Source: an uncultured Actinomycetes bacterium (lineage in GTDB: Bacteria > Actinomycetota > Thermoleophilia > Gaiellales > Gaiellaceae). Taken from it: a DNA stretch of 64,000 nt. Below, in pieces: positions 1-54,093 of this stretch; position 1 is the first letter of the stretch, and the number at the start of each line of letters is the position of its first letter. Position numbers and translations under genes: made by a program. Below the pieces are notes generated by a model. The model was not told where the DNA came from. It searched no databases and saw nothing but the letters and a program-made list of their open reading frames with translations. The stretch spans positions 120,092-184,091 of the forward strand of contig CAWISL010000005.1 of NCBI GenBank assembly GCA_963838795.1. Reading direction: 5' to 3'.

Positions 1-291
1 GTCGAAGGGCTTCTCGCAGAGGACGTGCTTGCCCGCCTCGAGCGCCTGGATCGACCACTCGACGTGCAGCGAGTTCGGCAGCGAGATGTAGACGGCGTCG
101 ATGCCGGGATCGGCGAGGAGTGCCTCGTAGCTTCCGTACGCGCGCTCGATCCCGTGCTCTCGCGCGTACGCCTCCGCGCGCGACTGCTCGCGGCTCGCGA
201 CGGCGACGACCTCCACCTGGTCGGACTCACGCGCACCGGCGAGCACCAGACGGTTGATGTGCGCGGTCGAGATGATCCCCCAGTTCGTCAT
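1..291 (-). CDS. Gfo/Idh/MocA family NAD(P)-dependent oxidoreductase, N-terminal part (3' end runs off the window)
   Basis: Own translation from ATG at 291: [16 protein letters not shown]...[28 protein letters not shown]. This is a Rossmann N-terminus with the EKP motif. ATGA overlap with the stop of the upstream kinase gene. Confidence 0.8.
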
Positions 292-1723
292 TCTGCCTCC
301 AATGGTCTCAGCGCCGGATACAGGGCGCGGTAGCGAGCGTAGCCGTCTGTGTAGAAGCCCTCCCACCCGGAGTCGGGGTCGACGGTCTCCCGAACGCGAA
401 CGCAGGCGGCGACCGCCTCGCCGACGTCGGCGAACACGCCTCCCGCGACGCCCCCGAGGAGCGCGGCGCCGTAGGCCGCTCCCTCCTCCACCTCCGTCCG
501 CTCGAGCGGGAGCCCGAGCACGGAGGCGACGATTCTGAGCCAGGGCTCGCTCCGGGCACCGCCGCCCGAGACCCGGCCGACGTCCAGGCGGCAGCCGAGC
601 GAGCGGAGGACCTCCAGCGAGTCGCGCAGGCCGTAGGCGACCCCCTCGAGCACCGCGCGCGCGAGCGCGCCGCGGTCGTGTCTGTGCGACAGGCCCGTGA
701 ACGCGCCGCGCGCGCGCGGGTCGGCGTGTGGCGTCCGCTCGCCGGCCAGGTAGGGCAGGAAGAGGAGCCCTTCCGCCCCCGGCTCCCAGCGCTCGGCCTC
801 GGCGACGAGGCGGTCGAACGGCTCGCCCGGGGCGACCGCGTCGCGAAACCAGCGGAGAGCCCCGGCCGCTGAGAGCATCACGCCCATCGCATGCCAGGCA
901 CCAGGGAGGGCATGGCAGAAGACGTGCGCGCGCCCCTCCGGATCCATGACCGCTCCCGGGAGCGTGGCGAAGACGACGCCCGACGTTCCGAGCACGACCG
1001 AGACCGGCCCCGGCGCGATGACGCCGACGCCGAGCGCCCCGGCAGCCTGGTCGCCGGCGCCGGCCGCGACCGGGATCCCCGCGGGCGTTACCGCGGAGCC
1101 GCGACGGCGACTCGAGCGCGGGCGGAAGCCAGTCTGCCGGGAGCTCCAGCGCGGCCAGCACCTCATCGCTCCACGCTGCGGGCCGCAACGTCGAAGAGGA
1201 GCGTGCCCGAGGCGTCGGCGACGTCGGTGACACGCTCCCCGGTCAGCGCGAGCCGCACGTAATCCTTCGGGAGCAGGACGTGGGCGATCCGCTCGTAGGC
1301 CTCGGGCTCATTCGCGCGGAGCCAGAGAAGCTTGGGCGCAGTGAAGCCGGGGAGTGCGCGATTGCCGGTGAGCCTCAGCAGGCGCGCGAGGCCGATCCGC
1401 TCCTCGATCTCCCGGCATTCCTTCGCAGTGCGCTGGTCGTTCCAGAGGATCGCCGGCCGGAGCACGCGCTCGTCGGCGTCGAGGACCACGAGGCCATGCA
1501 TCTGCCCGGTCACGCCGATGCCCGCGATCTCGTCCACGCCGAGCGCCTCGAGCGCCTCGCCGGCTGCGCGGCTCCAGTCCGCGGGATCCTGCTCGGCCCA
1601 GCCCGGCCGCGGCATCGACAGCGAGTACTCCCGCTCTGCCCGCCCCACGACCTCGCCGGAGCGGCTCACCGCGAGCGCCTTCACGCCGGTGGTGCCGACG
1701 TCGACCCCGACGAGCGCGCTCAT
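288..1723 (-). pseudogene. xylB: Xylulokinase (FGGY family) with interrupted reading frame
   Basis: N-terminal half (ATG 1723 to stop 1163): MSALVGVDVGTTGVKA...GQMHG...WNDQRT...PGFTAPKLLW. C-terminal half is in ORF 288..1166: [15 protein letters not shown]...GTSGVVF...[12 protein letters not shown]...GGGARS. The connecting peptide [22 protein letters not shown] is only readable in the third frame, implying two 1-nt shifts between about 1092 and 1177. Confidence 0.75.
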
Positions 1724-8073: not shown

Positions 8074-8791
8074 TCCCGTCCTCGCCCTGGAGAAGGTCAA
8101 CGCCTACTACGGGCGCGGGCAGGTCCTGCACGACGTCGGCTTCGAGATGGGCCGCGAGCCGGTCGCCGTGATCGGCCGCAACGGCATGGGGAAGACGACG
8201 CTGTGCCTCGCCATCATGGGCCTGATGGCCCACGCGGATGGCTCCGTCCGCTTCGAGGGGCAGGAGCTCATGGGCCGCGCCCCCTACAAGATCTCCGGCG
8301 CCGGGATCGGATACGTGCCGCAGGGCCGGCGCCTCTTCCCCTCGCTCTCGACGGAGGAGCACCTCGACATGCTCGGCGAGGGCAGCGGCGGCCGCTGGAC
8401 GAAGGAGGCGCTCTGGAAGCTGTTCCCGCGGCTCGCGGAGCGCCGCAAGATCAGCGGCGCCCAGCTCTCCGGCGGGGAGCAGCAGATGTTGGCCATCGCC
8501 CGCGCGCTCTACGGCAATCCCAAGCTTCTGATCATGGACGAGCCCTCCGAGGGGCTCGCGCCGGCAATCGTCGAGAGCCTCGTCGAGACGTGCCTGAACC
8601 TGGTCGAGGAGGGGGTCGGGCTTCTCCTCGTCGAGCAGAACCTCGGCGTCGCCACGTCGCTCGCAGGGCGGCAGCTGATCATGGTCGCGGGCGAGATCGC
8701 GGCCGAGACGACCGCCGAGGCGCTTCTTGCCGACCCCGACGCCCAGCAGCGCTACCTCGGCGTGACCCGCGTGGAAGGAGCCGTGGCCTAG
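8066..8791 (+). CDS. ABC transporter ATP-binding protein, LivF-like
   Basis: Walker A GRNGMGKTT, signature LSGGEQQML, Walker B LLIMDEPSEG. Overlaps the LivG-like stop. Confidence 0.9.
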   Translation: MSDPVLALEKVNAYYGRGQVLHDVGFEMGREPVAVIGRNGMGKTTLCLAIMGLMAHADGSVRFEGQELMGRAPYKISGAGIGYVPQGRRLFPSLSTEEHLDMLGEGSGGRWTKEALWKLFPRLAERRKISGAQLSGGEQQMLAIARALYGNPKLLIMDEPSEGLAPAIVESLVETCLNLVEEGVGLLLVEQNLGVATSLAGRQLIMVAGEIAAETTAEALLADPDAQQRYLGVTRVEGAVA

Positions 8792-8796
8792 ACATC

Positions 8797-10029
8797 GTGG
8801 CCAGCGTCGTCCTGCTCGGCACGCTCGACACGAAGGGGAACGAGTACGCGTTCCTGCGTTCGCTGCTGGACGGCCACGGCGTCGAGACGATCCTGGTCGA
8901 CACCGGCGTTCTCGGGGAGCCTCGCACTCCCCCGGACGTGACGCGCGACGATGTGGCGCGGGCAGCCGGCGCCGACGTCGGCGCGCTCGCCGCCGCGGGC
9001 GACCGCGGGGCCGCGGTGGCGACGATGGCGCGCGGCGCGGCCGAGATCGTCTCGCGGCTCTACGCCGACGAGCGTCTCGACGGCGTCCTCGCGCTCGGAG
9101 GCTCGGGCGGGACGGCAGTCGCCGCCGAGGCCATGCAGGCGCTGCCCGTCGGGGTCCCGAAGCTCATCGTCTCGACAATGGCCTCGGGCGACACCCGCCC
9201 CTACGTGGGCGCGACCGACGTGACGATGACGTACTCCGTCGTCGACATCGCCGGGATCAACGCCGTCTCGTCCCGCATCCTGGCCAACGCCGCGGCCGCC
9301 ATGGCGGGCATGGTGAAGTCGGAGCCGCCTTCGGTCGAGGGCGGGAAGCCACTCGTCGGGGCGACGATGTTCGGGGTCACGACACCGTGTGTGACCGAGG
9401 CCCGGGAGCGCCTCGAGGAGCTCGGCTACGAAGTGCTCGTCTTCCACGCCACCGGCACGGGCGGGCAGTCGATGGAGGCGCTCATGCGGAGCGGCTTCAT
9501 CACCGCCTCGCTGGACGTCACGACAACCGAGCTTGCGGATGACCTCGTCGGCGGCGTTCTTTCCGCGGGCCCCGACCGGCTCGAGGCCGGCGGCGAGCTC
9601 GGGATTCCCCAGGTCGTCTCCCTGGGTGCGCTCGACATGGTCAACTTCGGCGCTGTCGAGACGGTGCCGGTCCAGTTCCACGACCGGCTCCTCTACAAGC
9701 ACAACCCGACGGTCACCCTCATGCGCACGACACCGGAGGAGTGCGCCGAGCTCGGGCGGCGCATCGGCCGCAAGCTCTCGGCGGCAACCGGGCCCGTGAC
9801 GCTGTTCATCCCGCTTCGCGGAGTGTCGCTCATCGCCGTGGACGGCCAGGTCTTCCACGATCCGGAGGCCGACCAGGCGCTCTTCGACGGCCTTCGCGAG
9901 ACGCTCGATCCCGACGTGGACGTGCGCGAGCTGGACACGGACATCAACGACCCCGCCTTCGCCCAGGCAATGGTCGACACCCTCCACGAGCACTATCGGG
10001 CCTGGACGGCCGGGGGAGTGCGAGCATGA
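8797..10029 (+). CDS. UPF0261 / Tm-1 N-terminal-like ATP-binding domain protein (copy 1)
   Basis: GTG 8797. [16 protein letters not shown]...[41 protein letters not shown]...[10 protein letters not shown]...VFHATGTGG. Confidence 0.85.
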
Positions 10030-10871
10030 CGCGCGCGCAGGCTCTGGAACGCCTCCGGGCGCAGGTCCGGGAGGGCCGGCCGATCGTCGGCGCAGGCGCC
10101 GGGACGGGGCTCTCGGCGAAGTGCGCCGAGGCCGGCGGCGCCGACCTCATCATCATCTACAACTCCGGGCGCTATCGCATGGCGGGCAGGGGATCGCTCG
10201 CGGGCCTCCTCCCCTACGGCGACGCCAACGCGATCGTCATGGAGATGGCCGGCGAAGTGCTCCCCGTCGTGGAGTCGACGCCCGTCCTCGCCGGCGTCTG
10301 CGGCACGGACCCGTTTCGCCTCATGCCGGTCTTCCTCCGGCAGCTGCGGGAGGCTGGCTTCACGGGAGTCCAGAACTTTCCCACCGTCGGCCTCATCGAC
10401 GGCACGTTCCGTCAAAACCTCGAGGAGACGGGCATGAGCTACGCGCGCGAGGTGGACGCCATCCGCGCCGCCCGTGAGCTCGACCTCCTTACGTGCCCCT
10501 ACGTCTTCACCCCGGGCGACGCCCGAGCGATGGCGGAGGCGGGAGCCGACGTACTGGTTCCGCACATGGGCCTGACGACAGGAGGGACGATCGGCGCCGG
10601 GACCGCGAAAACGCTGGACGAGTCGATCGAGCTCATCCAGGCCATGCACGACGCAGCCGTGGAGATCGCGCCCGACATCCTCGTGCTCTGCCACGGCGGC
10701 CCGATCGCCGAGCCCGAGGACGCCGCCTACGTGCTCGAGCGCACGCGCGGCGTCGTTGGCTTCTTCGGCGCCTCGAGCATGGAGCGGCTCCCGACCGAAG
10801 TCGCGTTGACCGAGACCGTGAAGCGCTTCAAGGCTATTCCGGCCCGGCCGAGGGAAGGAGAGCGCGTATGA
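10026..10871 (+). CDS. PEP-hydrolase-like / TIM-barrel signal transduction family protein (Tm-1 C-terminal-like)
   Basis: ATGA overlap with copy 1. [45 protein letters not shown]...[16 protein letters not shown]...PHMGLTTGG...[11 protein letters not shown]. Confidence 0.85.
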
Positions 10872-14500: not shown

Positions 14501-15739
14501 GTGACGAACGAGCCGCAGATCGCGCTGATCGGGACCCTCGACACGAAGGGCGACGAGATCGCGTACGTGCGCGAGCGCCTCGCCGGCCTCGGCGTTCGGC
14601 CGGTCGTGATCGACTCAGGGATCCTGGGCGAGCCGGGCACGAGCGCCGACGTCACACGCGAGGAGGTGGCCGGCGAGGCGGGGTACGAGCTGGAGCAGGT
14701 TCAGTCGGCGGGCAGCCGCGGGGCTGCGGTCGAGCTCATGGAGCAGGGAGTGCGTGCCGTCTGCCTGCGCCTCTGGCTCGAGGGCCGTCTGCACGGCGTG
14801 CTCTGCCTGGGCGGGGCCGAGGGAGCGCTCCTGGGAGCAGCCGGGATGCGCGCCCTCCCGGTCGGCGTCCCGAAGCTGATCGTGACTCCCAGCGCCTCGG
14901 GTCGGCGTGCGTTCGGCCCCTTCGTCGGCGAGAGCGACGTCCTCGTCATGCACTCGGTCGTCGACATCCTCGGCCTCAACCCCATCGCGCGGACGGTCTT
15001 CGACAACGCCGCGGCAGCCGTCGCGGGCATGGCTCGAGACGCCGGACGCCCGCTTCAGGACCTGGGCGGCCGGAGCGTGGGCATCACGATGCTCGGCCAC
15101 ACCACTCCCGCGGTGATGCGCATCCGCGCGGGCCTCGCGCTGGCCGGCCACGAGCCGGTCATCTTCCACGCGAACGGCGTCGGCGGCCCGGCGATGGAGA
15201 AGCTCGTCGAGGCGGGCGCGCTCGCGGGCGTGATCGACTACACGCTCTCCGAGCTTGCGAACTCGCTCCTCGACGGGCTCCACGCGACGGGGCCCGACCG
15301 CCTCCGAGTCGCGGGCGCTCATGGCCTCCCGCAGGTGGTGGTTCCGGGCTGCGTCGACTTCTTCAACCAGGGGGCGCTCGACACCGTCCCCGCCGAGTAC
15401 CGCGCCCGCCAGAGCTACTACCACAATCCGGTGGCGACGCTCGTCCGGCTCGAGCCGGGTGAGATGGCCGAGCTCGGAGGCATGGTCGCCGAACGGCTCA
15501 ACGACGCCCAGGGGGCCGTTCACGTCGTCGCCCCGACCCTCGGCTTCTCGCTGGCGGACGTCGAGGGCGGCGACCTCTGGTTTCCGGAGGCCGACGCCGC
15601 ATTCCTGGACGCGCTCGGCTCCGCCCTGCGGCCGGACATCCAGCTCGAGCTCGTCGACACCCACGTGAACGACCCGGAGCTCGCCGATCTCGTCGTCGAG
15701 CGATACCTCGTCCTGGCCTCCGCGCCGTCGGCGACCTGA
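14501..15739 (+). CDS. UPF0261 / Tm-1 N-terminal-like ATP-binding domain protein (copy 2, no adjacent TIM partner)
   Basis: IALIGTLDTKGDEIAY...[29 protein letters not shown]...HSVVDILGLN...IFHANGVGG. Colinear with copy 1. Confidence 0.85.
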   Translation: MTNEPQIALIGTLDTKGDEIAYVRERLAGLGVRPVVIDSGILGEPGTSADVTREEVAGEAGYELEQVQSAGSRGAAVELMEQGVRAVCLRLWLEGRLHGVLCLGGAEGALLGAAGMRALPVGVPKLIVTPSASGRRAFGPFVGESDVLVMHSVVDILGLNPIARTVFDNAAAAVAGMARDAGRPLQDLGGRSVGITMLGHTTPAVMRIRAGLALAGHEPVIFHANGVGGPAMEKLVEAGALAGVIDYTLSELANSLLDGLHATGPDRLRVAGAHGLPQVVVPGCVDFFNQGALDTVPAEYRARQSYYHNPVATLVRLEPGEMAELGGMVAERLNDAQGAVHVVAPTLGFSLADVEGGDLWFPEADAAFLDALGSALRPDIQLELVDTHVNDPELADLVVERYLVLASAPSAT

Positions 15740-39637: not shown

Positions 39638-40069
39638 TCAGCCGCGGCCGGCGACGGCGATCTTGTTCTCCGCGTGGCGGAGGCGCTGCTCGACCTTCCA
39701 GCGGTCGTCCTCGTCCGCGCCGGCGTCGATCCGCTCGAGGAGGGCGCGGGCCTCCTCGGCCTCGCGGCGCGCCTCCTCGACGTCGATCTCCCCGGCGCGC
39801 ACGGCGTCGTCGACGAGGACGAGCGCGCGGTCCTGTTGCACCTTGAAATACCCCGGCCCGGCAGCGAACGCTTCCCAGTTTCCGCCCGTCTTGATGCGGA
39901 TCTCGCCCGCCTTCAGCATCGCCACGAGCGGCGCGTGCCGCGCGAGCACGCCGATCTCGCCCGAGACGCCGGGCACGATCAGCATCTCGGCCTCGCCCTC
40001 GTAGGCGGCGCCTTCCGGCGTCACGAGCGAGAGGTCGAAGGTGCGGACTGCGCCCTCTTGCGTAGCCAT
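39638..40069 (-). CDS. atpC: F0F1 ATP synthase epsilon subunit
   Basis: 143 aa: LSLVTPEGAAYEGEAEMLIVPGVSGEIGVLARHAPLVAML. Directly downstream of atpD. Confidence 0.9.
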   Translation of the reverse strand: MATQEGAVRTFDLSLVTPEGAAYEGEAEMLIVPGVSGEIGVLARHAPLVAMLKAGEIRIKTGGNWEAFAAGPGYFKVQQDRALVLVDDAVRAGEIDVEEARREAEEARALLERIDAGADEDDRWKVEQRLRHAENKIAVAGRG

Positions 40070-40080
40070 CCGGGACCTCC

Positions 40081-42148
<2,068 letters not shown>

Positions 42149-42207
42149 ACCTGCTCAGACGATAGCGAGAGGCGGAGGTTAGGCTTGGAACCCGGCGGCC
42201 CGAAGAC

Positions 42208-43100
42208 CTACATCCGGGTGACGCGGTCGAGCCTGAGCCTGGCCCGCTCGGCCTTCCGCTCGCGCTGGCGGCGCGGATCCGGCACGGGCACGGCAGCGAA
42301 GAGCGCCCTCGTGTACTCGTCCTTCGGGCTCGAGTAGACCTGCTCCGCGGGCCCGACCTCGACGAGCTTGCCCTGGTTCATGACGGCGATCTCATCGGCC
42401 ATGGTGCGGACGACGGCGAGATCGTGGGAGATGAACAGGTAGGTGAGCCCGAAGTCCCGCTGTAGGTCCTTGAGGAGATTGAGGATCTGCGCCTGAATCG
42501 ACACGTCGAGCGCGGAGACCGGCTCGTCGCAGATGATGAGCTTCGGGTTGAGCGCGAGGGCGCGGGCGATGCCGATCCGCTGCCGTTGGCCGCCGGAGAA
42601 CTCGTGCGGGTAGCGGTTCGTAAAGTTCGGGTTGAACCCGACCACCTCGAGCAGACGGCGAACCGTCTCGGTCCTGCCCTTGCGCGTTCCCATCCCGTGC
42701 ACCTCGAGCGGCTCCGAGACGATGTTCCCGACGGTCATGCGCGGGTCGAGCGACGAGTAAGGATCCTGGAAGACGATCTGCATGTCCTGCCGCATCTGCC
42801 GCAGCTCTTCCTTCTTGAGCTGAGTCAGCTCCTTGCCCTGGAACCGGATGGAGCCGCCCGTCGGCTTCATGAGCTGCAGGACGCAGTAGCCGGTCGTCGA
42901 CTTTCCGGAGCCGGACTCGCCGACGAGCCCGAGGGTCTTGCCTTCGGGGATCGAGAAGGAGACGCCGTCCACGGCCTTCACGTAGCCGACCGTCCTCTCC
43001 CACAGGATCCCCTTGCGCACGGGGAAGTGCTTCTGCAGGTCCGTGACCGTGAGGAGGACGCCGTCCTGGTTCGGGAGCGTCGTGGCCGCGGGTGCCTCGG

Positions 43101-43104
<4 letters not shown>
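42208..43104 (-). CDS. Oligopeptide/dipeptide ABC transporter ATP-binding protein (OppF/DppF-like)
   Basis: Walker [10 protein letters not shown], signature FSGGQRQRI, Walker [13 protein letters not shown], and the oligopeptide C-terminal region. Confidence 0.9.
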
Positions 43105-44112
<1,008 letters not shown>

Positions 44113-44200
44113 CAACGAGCCACCCGCTAGTGCCCCTCTAGGTGATGCTGCTGTGCTTCTGCGTTGCGAGCGCCACGCCAGAGTCCGCACTCGACCGAAG

Positions 44201-44221
44201 CCAAGGCTGAGGAAGCCTTGG
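44201..44221 (-). other. Perfect 8-bp stem hairpin inside the 182-nt oppC-oppD spacer
   Basis: ccaaggct-gagga-agccttgg. Confidence 0.3.
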
Positions 44222-44294
44222 TGAGGGCGAGGGTGGGCTCTGGCGCCGCCTGATCGCGGGGCAGAAGTGCGGCGTGCATTGCCTGGTGGGGCAC

Positions 44295-45260
44295 CTAGGT
44301 CTCCCTCGTGCGCGGGTCGAGGGCGTCGCGGAGCCCGTCGGCGATGAAGTTCGCGCAGAGCACGAGGGCCGCGATGAAGAGGCACGGGATCCAGAGGTCG
44401 AGGGGGTGCGTCCGGTACGCCTCACGGCCCTCGCTCGCGAGCGCGCCCCACGAGGCATCGGGCGGGTTGATGCCGAGCCCGATGAACGAGAGGAACGCCT
44501 CGCCGAGGACGACGGTCGGCAGCTCGAGGAAGACGAAGATGATCAGCACGCCGAGCGTGTTCGGAAGCAGATGGCGGACGAGCACCCGGTGCCAGCGGGC
44601 GCCGACGGCATGCGCCGCCCGGACGTAGTCGTTCTGCTTCAGCGTGATCACCTGCCCCCGCACGATGCGCGCCGCCGTGAACCAGCTCGCGATCGTCAGC
44701 GCGATCACCATCGTCCAGAAGTTGACCGTCCCGATGATGGCGAGGGCGAGGATGGCGAAGGGCAGGTAGGGCAGCCCGTAGAGCGCGTCCAGAAAGCGCA
44801 TCATCCCGTTGTCGAGTCGTCCGCCGACGAACCCGGAGATCGAGCCGTACGCGATGCCGATCACGAGGATGGCGAACGTGGCGGCGAAGCCGATGGCGAT
44901 CGACACCTGGCCGCCCTTGGCGACCCGGGTCCAGAGATCGCGACCGAACTGATCGGTGCCGAACGGATGCTCGAGCGACGGAGGCAGGTACGTCTCCGCG
45001 AAGTTCACCTCGTTGGGGTCGATGTCGAAGATCGTCGTCCAGATCCCCGGGATGATCCAGAAGCCCGGGATCAGGAAGCAGTAGAGCAGGATCACCGTGA
45101 AGACGATCGCCGCGGCGACAGCGCCCTTGTTGCGCAGGTAGCGGCGGTACGCGTCGCGCCACAGGCTCGTCTGGCGAACGGGCTCGCCGGCCGACTCCGC
45201 GAGGGGCGGCGCTGGGACCGGCGCCTCGAGCGTCCGCGCTTCGGGGGGGATAACGGACAT
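44295..45260 (-). CDS. Oligopeptide/dipeptide ABC transporter permease (OppC/DppC-like)
   Basis: 321 aa: HPFGTDQFGRDLWTRV...; the BPD transport EAA-type loop YVRAAHAVGARWHRVLVRHLLPN. Confidence 0.9.
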   Translation of the reverse strand: MSVIPPEARTLEAPVPAPPLAESAGEPVRQTSLWRDAYRRYLRNKGAVAAAIVFTVILLYCFLIPGFWIIPGIWTTIFDIDPNEVNFAETYLPPSLEHPFGTDQFGRDLWTRVAKGGQVSIAIGFAATFAILVIGIAYGSISGFVGGRLDNGMMRFLDALYGLPYLPFAILALAIIGTVNFWTMVIALTIASWFTAARIVRGQVITLKQNDYVRAAHAVGARWHRVLVRHLLPNTLGVLIIFVFLELPTVVLGEAFLSFIGLGINPPDASWGALASEGREAYRTHPLDLWIPCLFIAALVLCANFIADGLRDALDPRTRET

Positions 45261-45267
45261 CAGCGCG

Positions 45268-46209
45268 TCACGTCCTGCTCGTCCGGGTCCGCGGGTCGAG
45301 GAACCCGTACGCGATGTCCACGAAGAGATTCGCCAGGATGATCACGACCGACGTCAGGACCGTGATCCCCATCACTACCGAGTAGTCGCGGTTGGACACC
45401 GAGCTCACGAAGTAACGGCCGATGCCCGGGATCGAGAAGATCACCTCGATCACGAACGTCCCCGTGATGATGAGCCCGAAGAGCGGCGCGGTCGCCGTCA
45501 CGACCGGGATGAGCGAGTTTCGGAACACGTGGCGGGTGACGACGCTCTTCCAGCGCAGCCCCTTCGCGCGTGCCGTACGCACGTAGTCCTGCTGCATCGT
45601 CTCCAGCATCGTCCCGCGCACGAGCCTGGCGAAGTAGGCCATCGGGAAGAGCCCGAGCGCGAGCGACGGCAGGATGACGCGCGAGTCGATGTCCCAGAAG
45701 CCGAGCGGCCACCCGTTGGTCGGGAAGACGTTGACCTTGAGCGCGAAGTAGTAGATGAGCAGGGTGGCGATGAAGAAGCTGGGTAAGGCAAAGCCGATGC
45801 TCGAGAAGAACATCAAGAGGTAGTCGTAGAGCGTGTTCGGTCTCAGGGCGGCGATGATCCCAGCCGGGATGCCGAAGAGGATCGCCCAGATGAACGCGAG
45901 CACGCCGAGCTTCACCGACCGCGGGAAGTGCTCCTTGACGATGTCGGTCACGGAGCGGTCGCGCAGGACGAGCGACGGGCCCAGGTCGAGCGTGAACACG
46001 CCCTTCACATAGAGCAGGTACTGCATGTACCAGGGCTTGTCGAGGTTGAACTTCCGCTCGAGATTGGCCTGGACCTGCGGGGGCACCGCCCGCTCCGTGC
46101 GGCGGAAGGGGTTCCCCTCGATCTGCCGCATCATCATGAAGATCATGAAGATGACGAGCAGGAGGACCGGAATCGTCCAGAAGATCCTCCTGATGATGAA
46201 CGCTGCCAT
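45268..46209 (-). CDS. Oligopeptide/dipeptide ABC transporter permease (OppB/DppB-like)
   Basis: MAAFIIRRIFWTIPVLLLV...YVRTARAKGLRWKSVVTRHVFRNSLIPV. Confidence 0.9.
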   Translation of the reverse strand: MAAFIIRRIFWTIPVLLLVIFMIFMMMRQIEGNPFRRTERAVPPQVQANLERKFNLDKPWYMQYLLYVKGVFTLDLGPSLVLRDRSVTDIVKEHFPRSVKLGVLAFIWAILFGIPAGIIAALRPNTLYDYLLMFFSSIGFALPSFFIATLLIYYFALKVNVFPTNGWPLGFWDIDSRVILPSLALGLFPMAYFARLVRGTMLETMQQDYVRTARAKGLRWKSVVTRHVFRNSLIPVVTATAPLFGLIITGTFVIEVIFSIPGIGRYFVSSVSNRDYSVVMGITVLTSVVIILANLFVDIAYGFLDPRTRTSRT

Positions 46210-46253
46210 CTAGGTTGGATTGTCTACCCGTTGGCGACCGTTTGCCAACAGGA

Positions 46254-46283
46254 GTGGGCGGGGCGCCGAAGCGCCCCGCCCAC
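46254..46283 (-). terminator. Strong hairpin after the substrate-binding protein gene (attenuator or mRNA stabiliser)
   Basis: gtgggcggggcgc-cgaa-gcgccccgcccac: perfect 13-bp stem, 21 nt past the SBP stop. Confidence 0.5.
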
Positions 46284-46303
46284 CGACCTGAAGCCGACTG
46301 CTT

Positions 46304-47962
46304 CTAACCCCCCTGGACGACGACCTTCGTGAAGTCGATCTGATCCAGCGGGCTGATGAAGAACGTGTCCCGAACCGCGTCGTTCTCGAGGTTCGGATAC
46401 GTGTACCACATGATCGGCGTGAGCGGCACTTCGCCGGCCTCGTCGAACATGAGTCCCTCCAGCTGGCGGTAGAGCTCGTAGCGAGCGTCGTCGTCGACCG
46501 TCTGCTTGGCCTCCTCGACGAGCGCGTCGTACTCCTCGTTGCACCAGTTGGTGTTGTTGTTGCCCGAGTCACAGGTGAAGAGCTCGAGCCCGTTGATCGC
46601 GTCCGGGAAGTCGTAGATCCACCCGAGGCGATAGGCGTCGACGGCCTTGTTCGGCGGAGGTCCGAGGAACTCAAGGTACTGAGCCCACTCCTGCGCCTTG
46701 ATGGTCGTGTCGATGCCGAGCTCGTCCCACATGCTCTGCACGGCCACGGCGATCTCCGGGTGGCCGGGCGCGTCGTTGTGGAACAGGTTGACGTCCGTGT
46801 CCGGGTTCGGCTCCTCGGCCATGAGAGCGGTCGCCTGCTCCATGTCGCCCTCGGCGGGCAGCCAGGGCGAGTTCGGGTTGATGACGTCGAAGCCGTTGAC
46901 GCCCTCCGGAGTCATGCCCGTGGCCTGCGAGCGGCCCGTCCGGTCGATCTGGTCGGTGATGATCTTCCGGTTGATGGCCAACGACATCGCCTTGCGCTGG
47001 GCCAGGCCGATGTTCTCGACGTTGAACCCGTAGTAGTACGTCCCGAGGGCGGGATACAGCTCGAAGTACGGCTCGCCCTTGAGCCGGTCGATGTCCTCGG
47101 GCGGCAGTCCGGCGCCGTCGAGCGCGTCGACCTCGCCGGCCTCGAACGCCTGCACGCGGGTGACGCCGTCGACGATGATCGGCCCGTCGATCCGCTCCAG
47201 CGTGACGTTCGCGGCGTCGCGGTAGTCGGGGTTCTTGACCATGTTGATCGACGCCTCGTGGTCCCACGACTCGAGCATGAACGGACCGTTGGTGACGATG
47301 TTCTCCGGATCCGTCCAGTTGTCGCCGAACTCCTCGACGGTCGCCTGGTGAACCGGCAGGAACGAGTGGTGCGAGACCTGCCCGAGGAACCACGGCTGCT
47401 CGGAGGTCAGCTCGACCTGGAGCGTGTAGTCGTCCACCGCCGTGACGCCGATCTCGTCGGCCAGCGCGTCGCAGTTCTTCGCGCAGCCGTTGTACTCGGC
47501 GGCGCCCGTGATCCCGTAGAGCTGATAGGCGTAGTCGGTCGCAAGCTCGGGGCTCAGCGTCCGCTTCCACGAGTACACGAAGTCCTGAGCGGTGACCGGA
47601 TCGCCGTTCGTCCACGTCGCGTCCTCGTTGAGGTGGAACGTGACGACGTTCCCGTCGACCTCCCAGCTCTCGGCCAGCGCAGGCTCAGGCTCGTTCGTGT
47701 CCGGATTCAGTCTGACGAGCGGATCCATCAGGGCCAGGATGACGTTCGACGACGTCGTGTCCGTGGCCTTGCCGGGGTCGAGCGACGGCGGCTCGGCGCC
47801 CCAGGCGATCGTGAGCGTCTGCTCCGCCGCCGCGGCGCCGGTGTCGGTCGCGCCCGTGTCCTCGCCGGCCCCATCGTCGTCGTCCCCGCCGCACCCGGCT
47901 GCGCCGAGCGTCAGGACCGCGACGAGGGCCATGACGAGCAAGAGCCATCTGTTTCTACGCAC
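46304..47962 (-). CDS. Peptide/nickel ABC substrate-binding lipoprotein (family 5, OppA/DppA-like)
   Basis: GTG start after gaggaggg. Lipobox LTLGAAGCGG. Family-5 SBP length and blocks (LVRLNPDT..., YSWKR..., GPFMLESW...). Confidence 0.9.
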   Translation of the reverse strand: MRRNRWLLLVMALVAVLTLGAAGCGGDDDDGAGEDTGATDTGAAAAEQTLTIAWGAEPPSLDPGKATDTTSSNVILALMDPLVRLNPDTNEPEPALAESWEVDGNVVTFHLNEDATWTNGDPVTAQDFVYSWKRTLSPELATDYAYQLYGITGAAEYNGCAKNCDALADEIGVTAVDDYTLQVELTSEQPWFLGQVSHHSFLPVHQATVEEFGDNWTDPENIVTNGPFMLESWDHEASINMVKNPDYRDAANVTLERIDGPIIVDGVTRVQAFEAGEVDALDGAGLPPEDIDRLKGEPYFELYPALGTYYYGFNVENIGLAQRKAMSLAINRKIITDQIDRTGRSQATGMTPEGVNGFDVINPNSPWLPAEGDMEQATALMAEEPNPDTDVNLFHNDAPGHPEIAVAVQSMWDELGIDTTIKAQEWAQYLEFLGPPPNKAVDAYRLGWIYDFPDAINGLELFTCDSGNNNTNWCNEEYDALVEEAKQTVDDDARYELYRQLEGLMFDEAGEVPLTPIMWYTYPNLENDAVRDTFFISPLDQIDFTKVVVQGG

Positions 47963-48050
47963 TTGCTGCCCTCCTCTTGTTCATCAACGGCCGCACGTCG
48001 TTCTGGCCGAGCGGCCAACTTGCTGCTTAGACGCGCCTCGCCGCCCGAAG

Positions 48051-48989
48051 TTAGCGCGTTGCGAGGACGCGGCGCTCGACCACCTGGCTGTCGCGGAGCT
48101 GGGTCGTGCACCCGCCGACGGTGAGGAGCGTCCCGTCGACGTAGAAGGTCTGCAAGCCGTGCCGCGTCACGAGCGAGCGCGGGCCCGTCGTCCACGCGCC
48201 GGTAGCGGCGTCGTAGATCTGGTACGTGCTCTCCCAGACGGCGTGGATCTCGTCCCCCGCCACGGCCGCGCCGAGCAGCTCCATCGGCTCGGGCATCGCA
48301 GGGCCCTTGCGCCACTCGCCGGTCTCGGGGCTCAGGATCCAGACGTCGCGGAGGATGTCGTCCCCACGCCTGCCCCCGATCATCCAGATCTCGTCGCGAA
48401 ACGCCACGGAGTCGAACGCGTGGTTGGTGAAGGGCAGAGGTGGCCCCTCCGACCACGTGTCGGAGGCCGGGTCGTAGATGAAGACCTCGCGCCGCTCGAG
48501 CCCCTCGTGGTAGCCGCCGAGGACATAGATCTTCCCGTCGAGCGCGACCGCGGCGTGGTTGAAGCGCGGCTCGGGAAGCGGCGCCCGCTCGCTCCATTCG
48601 TCGCTCGCCGGGTCGTAGGCATGCAAGGCCGCCGAGTTGCCCTCGGCGGTCGTGCCTCCGACGACATAGAGGAGGCCGTCGACCGTCGCTGCGGCGCCCG
48701 CACGGACGGCCTCGGGCATCCGGCGCAGGGTCTCCCACGAGTCCGTGGCCGGGTCGTAGCGCGCGAGGAGATCGAGCGGTCGCCCGGTCTCCCCCACCAT
48801 CCCTCCGGCTGCGTAGACCTGCCCGTCGATCTCGGCCGCGGCGACGTAGCTCCGGCGCTGCGACATCGACTCGCCGAACGTCCAGTCCGCCGCCTCGGCG
48901 TCCTCGGCCCCGGAGCCGAGCGTGCCGACGACCGCGGCCGCGACCACGAGGGTGAGCACCGCGAGGAGGACGGCGACGGCGCGCATCAC
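48051..48989 (-). CDS. Kelch-repeat beta-propeller protein with N-terminal signal/anchor
   Basis: Repeated units: G.(V/I)Y..GG...........YDP..D.W (DGQVYAAGG, DGLLYVVGG, DGKIYVLGG, IWMIGG). Hydrophobic N-terminus AVAVLLAVLTLVVAAAVV. Confidence 0.8.
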   Translation of the reverse strand: MMRAVAVLLAVLTLVVAAAVVGTLGSGAEDAEAADWTFGESMSQRRSYVAAAEIDGQVYAAGGMVGETGRPLDLLARYDPATDSWETLRRMPEAVRAGAAATVDGLLYVVGGTTAEGNSAALHAYDPASDEWSERAPLPEPRFNHAAVALDGKIYVLGGYHEGLERREVFIYDPASDTWSEGPPLPFTNHAFDSVAFRDEIWMIGGRRGDDILRDVWILSPETGEWRKGPAMPEPMELLGAAVAGDEIHAVWESTYQIYDAATGAWTTGPRSLVTRHGLQTFYVDGTLLTVGGCTTQLRDSQVVERRVLATR

Positions 48990-49035
48990 CTTCTTGAGAC
49001 GCTCACGCCCGGCCCTGCGTTAGCGCTTCCGCACC

Positions 49036-49926
49036 CTACTGGGTGAGCGCGTCCGCGCCCGCGACGACCTCGAGGATCTCCTGCGTGATCTCCGACTGGC
49101 GCGCCCGGTTCATGTCCAGCGTCAGCTTGTCGATCAGCTCGCCGGCGTTCTTCGACGCGTTCCGCATCGCGGTCATGCGGGCGCCGTGCTCCGACGCGGC
49201 CGACTCGAGAAGGGCGCGGTAGACGGTCGTCTCCAGGTAGGTCGGCAGCAGGCGCCCGAGGATCTCCTCCGGCTCGGGCTCGTAGATGAAGTCTCCCTCG
49301 AGCGCGATCTCGTAGGCGCTCTTCTCCTCCTCCTCGAGCAATGTGCGCGGGATCGGGAGGACGTCCTCGACCGAGACGGTCTGGGTCAGCGGCGAGACGT
49401 AGTGGTTGTAGACGACCACGACCCGGTCGACCTCGCGCTCGACGAAGAGGTCGGCGAGTCGCTTCGAGATCGCGACCGCGTCCGCGTAGACCGGTCGGTC
49501 GGTAAAGTCGACCCAGGCCTGCTCGATCGCGTAGCGGCGGAAGCGGAGCGTCGAGCGTCCCTTCTTGCCCACCACCACCCAGCGGACGTCCGCGCCCGCG
49601 GCCCGGATCTCCCGCTCGAGCTGGAGCGCGCGCCGGATGATCTGCGCGTTGAACGCTCCGGCGAGGCCGCGATCTCCGGTCAGCGGCAGGATGGCCACGG
49701 ACTGGACCGTCTCCCGGGCCTCGAGGAGCGGGAAGCCGCGCGCGGGCGTCGCCCGCGCGGTCCCGATCATCAGCTCGCGCATGCGCTCGGCGTACGGGCG
49801 CAGCGCCGCGATGCGCGTCTCCGCCCGGCGCAGCTTGGCGGCCGCGACGAGCTCCATCGCCTTCGTGATCTTGCGCGTGTTGCGAACGGAGCGAAGTCGC
49901 CGCTTGATGTCCTGGACGGTGGCCAT
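49036..49926 (-). CDS. atpG: F0F1 ATP synthase gamma subunit (reading frame continuous with atpA upstream)
   Basis: From ATG 49926: [36 protein letters not shown]...[38 protein letters not shown]. Confidence 0.9.
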
Positions 49927-51459
49927 GGCGCGTTCAGCGAGGACCGCCTCTTCGTGGACGGCGAAGTTCTGCCTGAACTCCTCGATCTGCGCCCGCGCCG
50001 CCGCCTGCGCCTCATCCGGGAGATCGCCGCTCTCGCGGATCCCTGCGTAGACCGTTCCCTCGGTGCGCAGATACTCCCGCAGCTCCCCCTGGAAGCGCGG
50101 AACCTGGTCCGGCGGGATGTCGTCGAGGAGGCCCTGGACGCCCGCGAAGATGGCGATCACCTGCTCCTCCAGCGGCCACGGCTGGTACTGGGGCTGGTTG
50201 AGGGTCGTCACCATGCGCTCGCCGCGAGCGAGCGTTCGCTGCGTCTGCGGGTCAAGCTCGGAGCCGAACTGCGCGAACGCCTCCAGCTCGCGGTACTGGG
50301 CGAGGTCGAGACGGAGCCGGCCGGCGACCTGCTTCATCGCCTTCGTCTGGGCGTTCCCGCCCACGCGGCTCACCGAGATGCCGACGTTGATTGCCGGGCG
50401 CACGCCCGAGTAGAAGAGGTCGGACTCGAGGAAGATCTGCCCGTCTGTGATCGAGATGACGTTGGTGGGGATGTAGGCGGAGACGTCGCCGGCCTGCGTC
50501 TCGATCACCGGCAGCGCCGTCAGCGAGCCGCCGCCCAGCTCGTCGGCGAGCTTGCAAGAGCGCTCGAGCAGGCGTGAGTGGAGGTAGAAGACGTCGCCGG
50601 GGAACGCCTCGCGTCCGGGCGGGCGACGGAGGAGGAGGGACATCTGCCGATAGGCGTCCGCGTGCTTGGAGAGGTCGTCGTACATGCAGACGGCGTGCCT
50701 GCCGTTGTAGAGGAAGTGCTCGCCCATGGCGGTGCCGGCATAGGGCGCCATCCACTTGATCGGGGCCGCCTCGGTGGCGGAGGCCGTGACGATGATCGTG
50801 TAGTCCATCGCCCCCGCCTCCTTCAGGCGCTCGTACACCTGCGCGACGGTCGAGGCCTTCTGCCCGATGGCGACGTAGATGCAGATCATGTCCTGCCCGC
50901 GCTGGTTCAGGATCGTGTCGATGAGGATCGCGGTCTTCCCCGTCGAGCGGTCGCCGATCACGAGCTCGCGCTGGCCTCGGCCGATCGGGATCATCGAGTC
51001 GATCGCCTTGATCCCCGTCTGCAGCGGCTCGCTCACGGGCTGGCGGTTGACCACTCCCGGCGCCTTGAACTCGAGCAGGCGGTTCTCGGAGGCTTGCAGC
51101 GGCCCCTGGCCGTCGAGCGGGACGCCGAGCGGGTTGACGATGCGGCCGATGAGCTCGTCGCCGACCGGCACGCTGATGACCTTGCCGGTCCGCTTCACGG
51201 TCTCGCCCTCGGCGACCTGTTCCCAGTTGCCGAAGAGGGCGACGCCGACGTTGTCCTCCTCCAGGTTGAGCGCGATGCCGGTGACGCCGTGCTCGAGCTC
51301 GAGCATCTCCAGCGCCATACAGCTCTCCAGCCCGTAGGCGCGGGCAATGCCGTCGCCGATCTGGAGAACCGTGCCGACCTCGGCCAGGTCGGTTTCGACG
51401 CCGTAGGCCTCGATGCGCTGCTTCAGGATCGAGGTGATCTCTTCGGGGCGTAGCTTCAC
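49927..51459 (-). CDS. atpA: F0F1 ATP synthase alpha subunit, no stop codon before atpG
   Basis: [17 protein letters not shown]..., Walker A GDRSTGKT, ...[32 protein letters not shown]... Ends ...[19 protein letters not shown] and is followed in frame by the gamma ATG. Confidence 0.9.
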
Positions 51460-51466
51460 GTGATTC

Positions 51467-52000
51467 TCAGCTCCTTGCTGTGAGTTCCTGGCGTAGCTGG
51501 TCCAGCCGTCCGCGCACGCTCGCGTCGAGGCGCTGCGAGCCGGCCTGGATGACGATGCCCCCGATCAGGTCGGGGTCGATGCTTCTCGTTGCCTCCACTT
51601 TGCGGCCGGCCGCCTGCTCGATCTGACCCACGAGCTTGGCGGCCTCCTTGTCGGAAAGCTCGACGGCGGTCGTCAGCTCCAGCTCGAGCACACGCTCTTG
51701 CAGGGCGATCAGGCGCTCGAGCTCGCCCTGGATCTCGTCGACCTCGGCGATCCGGCCCTTCTCGGCCAGCAGGAGGAGGAAGTTGCGGACGAGCGGCTCG
51801 GCGTCTCCGAGCGCCACGGCGAGCGCGTCGCGCTTAACGTACGGCTCAATCTGCGGGTTGCGGAGGAGCGACCGCAGCTCGTCGGAGGCGCCGACGGCGG
51901 CGACGAACTCGCCCAGCTCCTCCCGGACCTCCTCGACCTTCTCCTGGTCGCGGGCGGCCTCGAGGAGCGCCTCGGCGTACACGCGATCTGCCACGGCCAA
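51467..52000 (-). CDS. atpH: F0F1 ATP synthase delta subunit
   Basis: 177 aa (OSCP-like: [14 protein letters not shown]...[21 protein letters not shown]); position between atpF and atpA. Confidence 0.9.
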
Positions 52001-52012
52001 AGCTTCAGCCCC

Positions 52013-52591
52013 CTAGTTCTCGCTCGCGATCTGCTTCACGTCGACCTCGGCGATCGTCTCGTCGATCAGCCGCCTCTGGTCCTTCGCGTCGAGGACCTTG
52101 CCGGTGACCTTCTCGGCGGCGAGGAGCGTCAGCTCGACGACGTCGCGGCGGATCTGCTCCCGGAGCCTGGTGTTCTCCGCCTCGAGCTCCTCGCGGTTCT
52201 TCTCCAGCCGCTCCTTCAGATCGGCGTCGGCCTGCTCGCGCGCTTGCTCGAGCTGGCGCTGGGCCTGGCGGCGCGATTCGTCGAGGATTCGCTCGCGATC
52301 GGCCAGGGCCTCCTCGCGCTCGCGCTTCACGAGCTCGCGGAGATCGCGGGCCTCCTCGCGCGCCTTGTCCGCCTCGTCGAGGGCCTCACGGATCCGGTCT
52401 CGGCGCTGGTCGATTATGCCCTGGATGCGCCCGAAGGCGAAGCGCCTGAGCACCCAGAGGACGATCAGGAACGTGAGGATCGTCCAGACCATCAGGCCCG
52501 GGACGACATCGATCAGCGAGCCCTCGTCCTCCTCCGCCGTCGTGGTCGTCTCCTGGGCGAAGAGGAATGCCTGGAGTAGGGAGTCCCTCAT
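52013..52591 (-). CDS. atpF: F0F1 ATP synthase subunit b
   Basis: One N-terminal TM segment (MVWTILTFLIVLWVL), then a long charged coiled coil. Confidence 0.9.
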   Translation of the reverse strand: MRDSLLQAFLFAQETTTTAEEDEGSLIDVVPGLMVWTILTFLIVLWVLRRFAFGRIQGIIDQRRDRIREALDEADKAREEARDLRELVKREREEALADRERILDESRRQAQRQLEQAREQADADLKERLEKNREELEAENTRLREQIRRDVVELTLLAAEKVTGKVLDAKDQRRLIDETIAEVDVKQIASEN

Positions 52592-52597
52592 CGGCGA

Positions 52598-52861
52598 TCA
52601 GACGAGCACGAACGCGAGCAGGCCGCCGAGGAGCGCGTAGAAGACGACGGCCTCGGTGAGAGCGAAGCCGAGCCACTGGATGCCGGTCAGCTCCCCGCGA
52701 AGCTCGGGCTGCCGGGCGACCGCCTGGATCATGGAGCCGAAGATCGTGCCGATGCCGATGCCGGCGCCCACGGCGCCGAGCCCGACGCCGACCCCGAAGG
52801 CGATCGCCTTCCCGAGGTCGGCCAGGCCAGCGTCCGTGGTCTGTGCGAGCAGGATGTCCAC
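52598..52861 (-). CDS. atpE: F0F1 ATP synthase subunit c
   Basis: 87-aa hairpin: GAVGAGIGIG...ARQPE...FALTEAV (carboxylate Glu). Confidence 0.9.
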   Translation of the reverse strand: MDILLAQTTDAGLADLGKAIAFGVGVGLGAVGAGIGIGTIFGSMIQAVARQPELRGELTGIQWLGFALTEAVVFYALLGGLLAFVLV

Positions 52862-52870
52862 TGTCCCTCC

Positions 52871-53701
52871 TTAGTGTTCCGGTTCGATGGCTGCGCCGAT
52901 GTAGATGGCCGAGAGCAGGGCGAAGACGAAGGCCTGGATCGTGACGACGATGCCGACCTCGAAGAGGTAGATGGCCGTTCCGATCACCACCGAGAACGGG
53001 ATCAGCCACCAGGCCGAGAAGATGAAGATCAGGCCGAGCATGACGAGGATCAGCATGTGGCCCGCGAGCATGTTGGCGAAGAGCCGCACCGAGAGCGAGA
53101 TCAGGCGCATGAACTGCGAGATCACCTCGAGCGGGACGATCAGGGCCAGCAGCGGCTTGGGCGCCCCCTCGGGGATCCAGCTCTTGAAGTAACGGCCCAC
53201 CCCGTTGTAGCGGATGCCCTCGAAGTGAGTGGCGCCGAAGGTGATGAGCGCGAGGGCGAGCGTGACGCTCAGGTTGGCCGTCGCCGCGTAGATCCCCCAG
53301 GTCGGCAGCTCGACGCCGAAGAAGTCGAACTTCTCGTCGGAGAGCGGCAGCGGGATGAAGCCGACGATGTTCAGCACCCAGATGAAGAGGAAGAGCGAGG
53401 CAACGTACGGGAACCAGAGGTGCAGCGCCTTCGAGGGAATGCTCGACTCCGCGATCTGCTCCTGGACGGCCTCGTAGATCGCCTCGCCGGTCGTCTGCCG
53501 GCGGTCGGGTCGGAGCGAGAGGCCGAACCGCATCAGCCAGATCCCCAGCAGGATCGTCAGGAGCCCGCCCAGCCAGAGGTATGCGACCGCCTTGTTGACG
53601 GAGAGGTCGAGCGGCCCGATGTGAATCGGGACCCACTCCTGGAGGACGAACTCGTGCTGCGGGTCGAAGTCGCTCTCGGAGGCGGCGAGCAGGAGGCTCA
53701 T
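52871..53701 (-). CDS. atpB: F0F1 ATP synthase subunit a
   Basis: 276 aa, polytopic, with LSVRLFANMLAGH (essential Arg). Confidence 0.9.
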   Translation of the reverse strand: MSLLLAASESDFDPQHEFVLQEWVPIHIGPLDLSVNKAVAYLWLGGLLTILLGIWLMRFGLSLRPDRRQTTGEAIYEAVQEQIAESSIPSKALHLWFPYVASLFLFIWVLNIVGFIPLPLSDEKFDFFGVELPTWGIYAATANLSVTLALALITFGATHFEGIRYNGVGRYFKSWIPEGAPKPLLALIVPLEVISQFMRLISLSVRLFANMLAGHMLILVMLGLIFIFSAWWLIPFSVVIGTAIYLFEVGIVVTIQAFVFALLSAIYIGAAIEPEH

Positions 53702-54093
53702 CGCCGCGGGCTCCCGGAGAAGTAGATGGCAAGGCTCGTGATCAGCTCGGCGCTGTACGCGGCCGCGTAGGTGAGCGCGCCGGCGAGGGCGAGCGACGGG
53801 TTCGCCACCGCGACGGCGAGCAGGATCAGGACGAGCGCGATCCCGCGGCCCATCATCCCGAAGGCCGCCACCCCGGAGCCGCGGAGCGTAGGCTCGCCGA
53901 TCCCCGCCTTCCCGAGCAGGAGCCCGACGACCTGGCTACCGGCCCAGAGGAGCGCGCCGAGCGCCCACCCGCGGACGTCCCAGCCGGCGAGGAGGAAGAT
54001 CGGAAGAGCGAGTGCGACGACGGCGCCGCCCACGAGGACGGGCATGCGCCGGTCCGGCATGGGACGCGGCGTGAGCAGCGCCCCGGGAGTCAC
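53698..54093 (-). CDS. Small hydrophobic AtpI-like protein at the head of the atp operon
   Basis: 131-aa ORF with 4 predicted TM segments. Overlaps the atpB start by 4 nt. Start uncertain (GTG 54093 or an internal ATG). Confidence 0.55.
   Translation of the reverse strand: MTPGALLTPRPMPDRRMPVLVGGAVVALALPIFLLAGWDVRGWALGALLWAGSQVVGLLLGKAGIGEPTLRGSGVAAFGMMGRGIALVLILLAVAVANPSLALAGALTYAAAYSAELITSLAIYFSGSPRR

Follow-up and report, generated by a model that had tools for sequence, protein, structure and literature searches.

Does a Gaiellaceae-like actinobacterium make the alpha and gamma subunits of its F1Fo ATP synthase as one polypeptide, or is a single nucleotide of the deposited sequence wrong? 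The question is raised by the window, i.e., the whole stretch of DNA analysed here (64,000 nucleotides, 70% G+C, with homologues pointing to a Gaiellaceae-like actinobacterium), in which both subunits are complete within the same open reading frame (ORF), and the stop codon between them is absent. The fusion is present in the deposited sequence; its presence in the organism is a separate question.

The assembled frame within the atp operon

The first-pass annotation of this DNA described an ORF on the minus strand, at 49036..51459, in which a complete alpha runs without a stop into a complete gamma, and both the ORF listing of the window and full-length Pfam matches agree with this description. 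The ORF is 807 codons long and starts with GTG. Its alpha part (aa 26-495) is covered by the domains ATP-synt_ab_N (PF02874, positions 3-69 of 69), ATP-synt_ab (PF00006, 1-213 of 213) and ATP-synt_ab_C (PF00306, 1-126 of 126), and its gamma part (aa 515-805) by PF00231 (2-285 of 285). The alpha-type Walker A motif (GDRxTGKT) is present as GDRSTGKT at 50955 on the minus strand, and the beta-type motif GGAGVGKT is found in a separate gene, at 41106. The minus strand reads gag gcg gtc ctc gct gaa cgc gcc ATG gcc acc across the junction, the very letters given in the first-pass annotation, which also placed the gamma ATG correctly, at 49926. This ATG is codon 512 of the ORF, in the frame of alpha, and it represents gamma's own start at the conserved N-terminus, the same as in relatives (M/V-A-T-V-Q). 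The assembled atpA-atpG junction sequence of the window is GTCCTCGCTGAACGCGCCATGGCC, with the consensus letters across the junction site being GCTGAACGCGCC. The atp genes recognized in the window are the following:

53698-54093, minus strand: atpI-like gene, assigned by position, without a Pfam match
52871-53701, minus strand: atpB, Pfam ATP-synt_A at full length
52598-52861, minus strand: atpE, Pfam ATP-synt_C at full length
52013-52591, minus strand: atpF, Pfam ATP-synt_B at full length
51467-52000, minus strand: atpH, Pfam OSCP at full length
49927..51459, minus strand: atpA (F1 alpha) frame as assembled, codons 1-511, assigned by Pfam, Walker A and homology; its true end is probably the TGA at 49936-49934, giving 508 aa
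49036..49926, minus strand: atpG (F1 gamma), 296 aa, assigned by PF00231 and the start shared with relatives
39638..41625, minus strand: atpD (beta), ORF 40081-41625, with atpC (epsilon) within 39638-40159, assigned by GGAGVGKT at 41106 and Pfam

From its first gene to atpG, the operon (atpI-like, B, E, F, H, A, G, with the block above atpA at 51467..54093) is ordered as in the related loci L001-L003. When compared to the canonical, translationally coupled atpA-atpG pair of an atpIBEFHAGDC operon, the window is alike in the same upstream order, in the full-length alpha and gamma domains and in the close junction characteristic of its relatives, but it differs in having the stop one base out of frame, and in having atpD and atpC ~7.4 kb away from atpG, not adjacent to it. 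The region 3' of atpG (39638-49036, minus strand) encodes a Kelch-repeat protein, an Opp/Dpp-type ABC transporter (SBP, two permeases and two ATPases) and a zf-HC2-type protein, followed by atpD and atpC. The separation recurs in most Gaiellales-like loci and not in relatives further away. There are 27 Gaiellales-like loci with atpD 2-9 kb (mostly 7-8 kb) 3' of atpG and 17 more that lack atpD in the flank available, and 54 more distant relatives have atpD next to atpG; the split operon is also seen in L001-L004, L008, L013, L042, L166 and others. Judging from these gene orders, the separation of atpG from atpD is a real trait of the clade, unrelated to the fusion.

Two of the neighboring genes deserve a mention. 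The Kelch-repeat protein encoded directly 3' of atpG (48051-48989, minus strand) is 312 aa long and secreted-looking; its gene is shared with L003 and, apparently, with L166, and absent from L001, L002 and L004, and it appears, from this comparison, to be a variable insertion in the conserved atpG-opp interval. At the position of atpI, the hydrophobic ORF of 131 aa (53698-54093, minus strand) overlaps the start of atpB by 4 nt, and similar ORFs of 115-131 aa, without Pfam matches, are found in relatives.

Junctions in relatives and the out-of-frame stop

The nearest homologues of the window alpha are stand-alone proteins of 506-514 aa, 87-94% identical to it, and stand-alone alphas of 509-512 aa reach 94-96% identity. 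The nearest relatives, with alphas at 90-96% identity, have the two genes separate. In a census of the junction, 164 related loci were classified, one of them incomplete, and the set included two loci, L003 and L004, that were fetched because they are fused. All the classified loci except these two possess a stop between alpha and gamma. In the relatives the two genes either overlap by one nucleotide (TAGTG or TGATG) or are separated by a spacer, of 0-12 nt at typical close junctions and usually <50 nt across the classified loci, and they are often in the same frame. A stop of alpha 3 nt ahead of gamma is found in 20 loci, one 6 nt ahead in 38 and one 9 nt ahead in 16, in a sample biased toward frame-0 geometries because the census query spanned the junction, and these frequencies are not population estimates. 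In many of the Gaiellales and Solirubrobacterales relatives of this biased sample (L005-L164), atpG follows in the frame of atpA with only the stop or 1-3 further codons in between ('ggc tag ATG', for example), and in such same-frame relatives one substitution or stop-codon readthrough would yield an alpha-gamma polypeptide.

Among individual junctions, those of L001 and L002 have alpha ending as ...HEEAGVLA, with TAG overlapping the gamma GTG by one base (TAGTG). In L165, which encodes the closest alpha (96% aa identity), the junction is GCT GCC GCC TGA GGCGCGTCC ATG, i.e., TGA, 9 nt and ATG, and in L038 it consists of TGA, 10 nt and GTG. No unfused relative of the same species (at least 98% identity) is found among the matches. 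In the window, three elements of the junction can be recognized by comparison with these loci:

49934..49936, minus strand: TGA, one base out of frame, the probable true stop of atpA, aligned to the TGA stop of L165
49936..49938, minus strand: where a base is most likely missing, in the Ala codon GC(N) directly before TGA, now read as GCT and then GAA, from the register with L001 and L002
49927..49933, minus strand: atpA-atpG spacer ACGCGCC, 7 nt, translated in the assembly into the ...ERA linker, resembling the L165 spacer GGCGCGTCC

The first-pass annotation had pointed to a TGA lying out of frame 7 nt before the gamma ATG, and had proposed that a single missing base upstream of it would restore the alpha stop. 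The TGA is found at 49936-49934, followed by the 7 nt of ACGCGCC and the gamma ATG, and the proposal works in silico: with one base inserted just 5' of the TGA, alpha would end as ...HEEAVLA followed by a stop, at 508 aa, with the TGA aligned to the stop of L165, and the geometry of the repaired junction would be GCN TGA, 7 nt and ATG, with the start of gamma in close coupling. As assembled, the window encodes no stand-alone alpha (~500-515 aa, ending before atpG), with the in-frame stop being absent, and such an alpha is obtained once this one base is inserted before the TGA at 49936.

The alignment also suggests where the frame is lost. The window sequence GTC CTC GC (V L A) lines up in register with GTA CTC GCG TAG (V L A stop) of L001 and L002, so that the frame would be correct up to this point and wrong afterwards. 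The TGA of the window, along with its GC-rich spacer ACGCGCC, aligns with the real TGA and the spacer GGCGCGTCC of L165, and the TGA stop of L038 is comparable. Thus a change of a single base restores the arrangement typical of the relatives, as is expected of a consensus error. One other repair was considered, by a base missing after GAGGC, which would produce HEEAGPR followed by a stop and would restore the common motif HEEAG; it was rejected, given the common register of VLA here and the VLA-stop in L001 and L002.

The fusion does not require the change to fall at one precise position. The 233 nt 5' of the ATG contain no stop in the gamma frame, and therefore the loss of one nucleotide anywhere in the final ~220 nt of atpA would make a full fusion ORF. 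At the anomaly density of the window, the chance of such a fusion is computed to be ~0.5% per genome, which would roughly account for a handful of fusions in thousands of long-read metagenome-assembled genomes (MAGs).

Stop-less junctions in other assemblies and frameshifts in the window

Proteins combining alpha and gamma make up 15 of the best 120 protein matches, and two more belong to the 90% cluster of the window protein; ~17 alpha-gamma "fusion" proteins are already present in protein databases. Their origin is skewed. All of the 15 fused proteins come from ENA/NCBI, and 72 of the 105 unfused ones come from JGI (Fisher p = 2.3e-7); by source, 0 of the 72 JGI proteins among the best matches are fused vs 15 of the 48 from ENA/NCBI. 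Likewise, fused loci were found in 0 of 80 JGI metagenome contigs, which represent independent, high-accuracy assemblies, and in 0 of 80 GTDB species representatives.

The fused junctions are also unlike each other. One example is P0121 (L003), with the junction ...SAVGPVS-M. Another example is P0122 (L004), with the junction ...AGVLAY-V, which equals one base inserted in TAGTG. Further examples are P0002 (L166), P0004 (L167) and P0003 (L168), encoded on contigs fetched apart from the 164-locus census, which leave the alpha frame 10-55 codons before its end and proceed into an Arg/Gly-rich nonsense tail. An identical stop-less junction in independent relatives, the observation that the first-pass annotation had set against an assembly error, was not found either in the census or in L166-L168: every fused junction examined differs, and the stop-less junctions belong to indel-rich contigs of one ENA assembly series. 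Indeed, the contigs of six relatives that were inspected are all 'contig_N' records of ENA assemblies ERZ250394xx-395xx, and they carry truncated, split or merged neighbors (for example, SBP and atpB genes that are split, an OSCP that is shortened, a permease merged with an ATPase, and a gamma frame that continues into the Kelch gene). The naming of these contigs is of the same style as in the long-read MAG records of Microflora Danica, a project that assembled Nanopore reads only, using Flye and a single round of Medaka, and whose catalogue has been inspected for Nanopore-associated errors (PMC12313526). From the contig naming and the like-styled Microflora Danica records, the ERZ relatives likely have ties to this project, and from its database sources (NCBI and ENA) and its closest relatives we infer that the window contig comes from a Nanopore-only project of the same type.

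If single bases are miscalled in this contig, other genes may be expected to be affected as well. Approximately 55 ORFs of the window were checked for complete coverage of Pfam profiles, and ~50 ORFs other than the broken ones have full-length matches. Two conserved genes are broken by 1-nt insertions within the same 64 kb, making, with atpA-atpG, three single-base anomalies:

43101..44385, minus strand: oppD-like ABC ATPase, 1-nt insertion near 43,675, from the Pfam split, frame plot and alignment
288..1715, minus strand: FGGY carbohydrate kinase, 1-nt insertion near 1,166-1,175, from the Pfam split and the sequence

In the oppD-like gene, ABC_tran is matched at positions 2-101 of 137 in the ORF at 43180-44385, and positions 98-137, along with oligo_HPY, are matched in the ORF at 43101-43802. 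The frame plot switches at 43643-43708, and the window has one extra T (GGCATTCCC) vs GGGA-TCCC in L001, L002 and L003; this extra T is probably another consensus error. In the kinase gene, the match to FGGY_N (positions 3-186 of 245) ends at the stop of the ORF at 1163-2398, FGGY_C is found in the ORF at 288-1166, in a different frame, and an extra G (AGC-G-TGG) interrupts the sequence between ...AARS and WSDEVL. Such frameshifts elsewhere in the same contig are what consensus errors would produce. The GC3 frame plot detected the oppD shift and missed the FGGY shift, and most of the frame switches that it displays are normal gene boundaries; coverage of Pfam profiles was needed instead to detect frameshifts.

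A gene of the UPF0261 family is present twice in the window, in the region at 8203-10871 (plus strand), where a PEP_hydrolase-like gene follows the first copy, and at 14501-15739 (plus strand). Both copies are found within a catabolic cluster of a sugar/inositol type, with genes for an AP_endonuc_2 TIM-barrel protein, GFO/IDH/MocA, DeoR and ROK proteins.

Consensus error, mutation or fusion

Overall, the apparent fusion is most likely ordinary and does not represent a new kind of enzyme. We put at roughly 0.78 the probability that the atpA-atpG fusion is a single-nucleotide consensus error of long-read metagenome assembly. The organism would then possess an F1Fo ATP synthase of the ordinary type, its atpA and atpG being separate genes, and one nucleotide would be wrong in the deposited consensus, at the extreme 3' end of atpA. 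Most probably, the last Ala codon would have lost one base directly before the true TGA stop (49936-49934), shifting the stop out of frame and joining the alpha frame to the gamma frame that starts 7 nt on. As the genome is 70% G+C, no further stop would intervene, and a gene caller would read one ORF of 807 codons. We infer that the cell itself does not carry the change, which would stem from the sequencing or from the calling of the consensus (in a Nanopore-only assembly of the Flye plus Medaka type). Of the three options offered in the first-pass annotation, a 1-nt assembly error is thus the favored one, based on the L165 stop, the one-base repair and the two further frameshifts, and a genuine fusion is very unlikely. 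The stoichiometry argument made there against an obligatory fusion is sound. F1 is alpha3-beta3-gamma1, with gamma rotating inside alpha3-beta3, and an obligatory fusion would therefore supply three gammas per ring (3:3) and would tether the rotor to the stator via a linker of six residues. A linker of this length cannot span the distance from the C-terminal domain of alpha to the N-terminal helix of gamma.

Some observations speak against an error. The window is otherwise fairly clean, with three anomalies per 64 kb, and an error at exactly this spot is a priori improbable, the site having come to notice by selection for anomalies. Both verified indels of the window are insertions, and the change in atpA-atpG would be a deletion. 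Four stop-less variants are found among alphas at least 90% identical, which could be read as a tendency of the lineage, each with a different junction. When compared to single-base consensus errors as they occur in long-read assemblies, the window case is alike in being single-base, sporadic and non-conserved, in being accompanied by other broken genes in the contig and in being confined to one class of assemblies; it differs in that the putative missing base is outside of a long homopolymer.

Instead of an indel, a substitution may be involved, and this reading ranks second, even if an unlikely one. An ancestral GCT TAA CGC GCC ATG, in which a 6-nt spacer keeps the stop and the start in the same frame, would have changed from TAA to GAA at 49935. 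Such same-frame geometry is very common in the Gaiellales relatives of our biased sample (e.g., 'gcg taa ccc cga ATG' in L005), and the stop would also land directly after VLA, as it does in L001 and L002. However, the TGA at 49936-49934 would become a coincidence, despite being aligned with the TGA stop of L165, and both verified errors of the window are indels, and it is for these reasons that the substitution is placed behind the loss of a base. If artefactual, it overlaps with a consensus error; if real, it overlaps with the next possibility, of a recent mutation that fuses atpA and atpG, is fixed or frequent in the population sampled, and is either inactivating or tolerated for a while. 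A real mutation takes the sequence as deposited, one base change suffices for it, and the mutational target is large, but we still consider it improbable. The F-type operon is otherwise intact and conserved, and the loss of free alpha and gamma should be strongly counter-selected; the junction is common to no relative; the two more broken conserved genes per 64 kb are better explained by assembly noise than by three recent and independent pseudogenisations; and one class of assemblies supplies all of the fusions.

Far less credible is a genuine functional fusion, with free subunits produced by cleavage between ...VLAERA and MATV..., by internal initiation at the gamma ATG, or by frameshifting onto the TGA. 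Each half is complete and evidently constrained, and stop-less junctions recur among related assemblies, but no junction is common to two of the sampled relatives, the nearest relatives are unfused, and no fusions are found in short-read assemblies. In many of the other "fusions", the end of alpha is translated in a wrong frame, so that they cannot be selected products, and internal initiation could provide free gamma but not free alpha. Equally hard to credit is a Gaiellaceae lineage that truly encodes an alpha-gamma polypeptide, with either a cleaved linker or a tolerated fused fraction, even if the origin of a fusion would be easy here, since atpA and atpG are separated only by a stop codon or by a 1-nt overlap. 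Such a polypeptide, if true, would be the first case of a rotary ATPase with its stator and rotor naturally fused, and, if real, it would challenge the assembly of a 3:1 rotary motor. No natural alpha-gamma fusion was found in a literature search.

With a consensus error being the preferred explanation, the locus presents a cautionary case, in which high G+C content, closely spaced or overlapping genes and one wrong long-read base combine into a clean-looking "fusion protein" that enters databases. Its practical value is in annotation hygiene and not in bioenergetics.

A natural fusion of two ATP synthase subunits is known from mycobacteria and other actinobacteria, the b-delta fusion (atpFH), which is conserved by clade and joins single-copy stator parts that are already in contact. 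Like that fusion, the window ORF joins two neighboring atp genes of an actinobacterium into a single polypeptide. Unlike b and delta, alpha and gamma have unequal copy numbers (3:1) and belong to the stator and the rotor, respectively, and the window junction is conserved in no relative. The atpF and atpH genes themselves are separate in the window.
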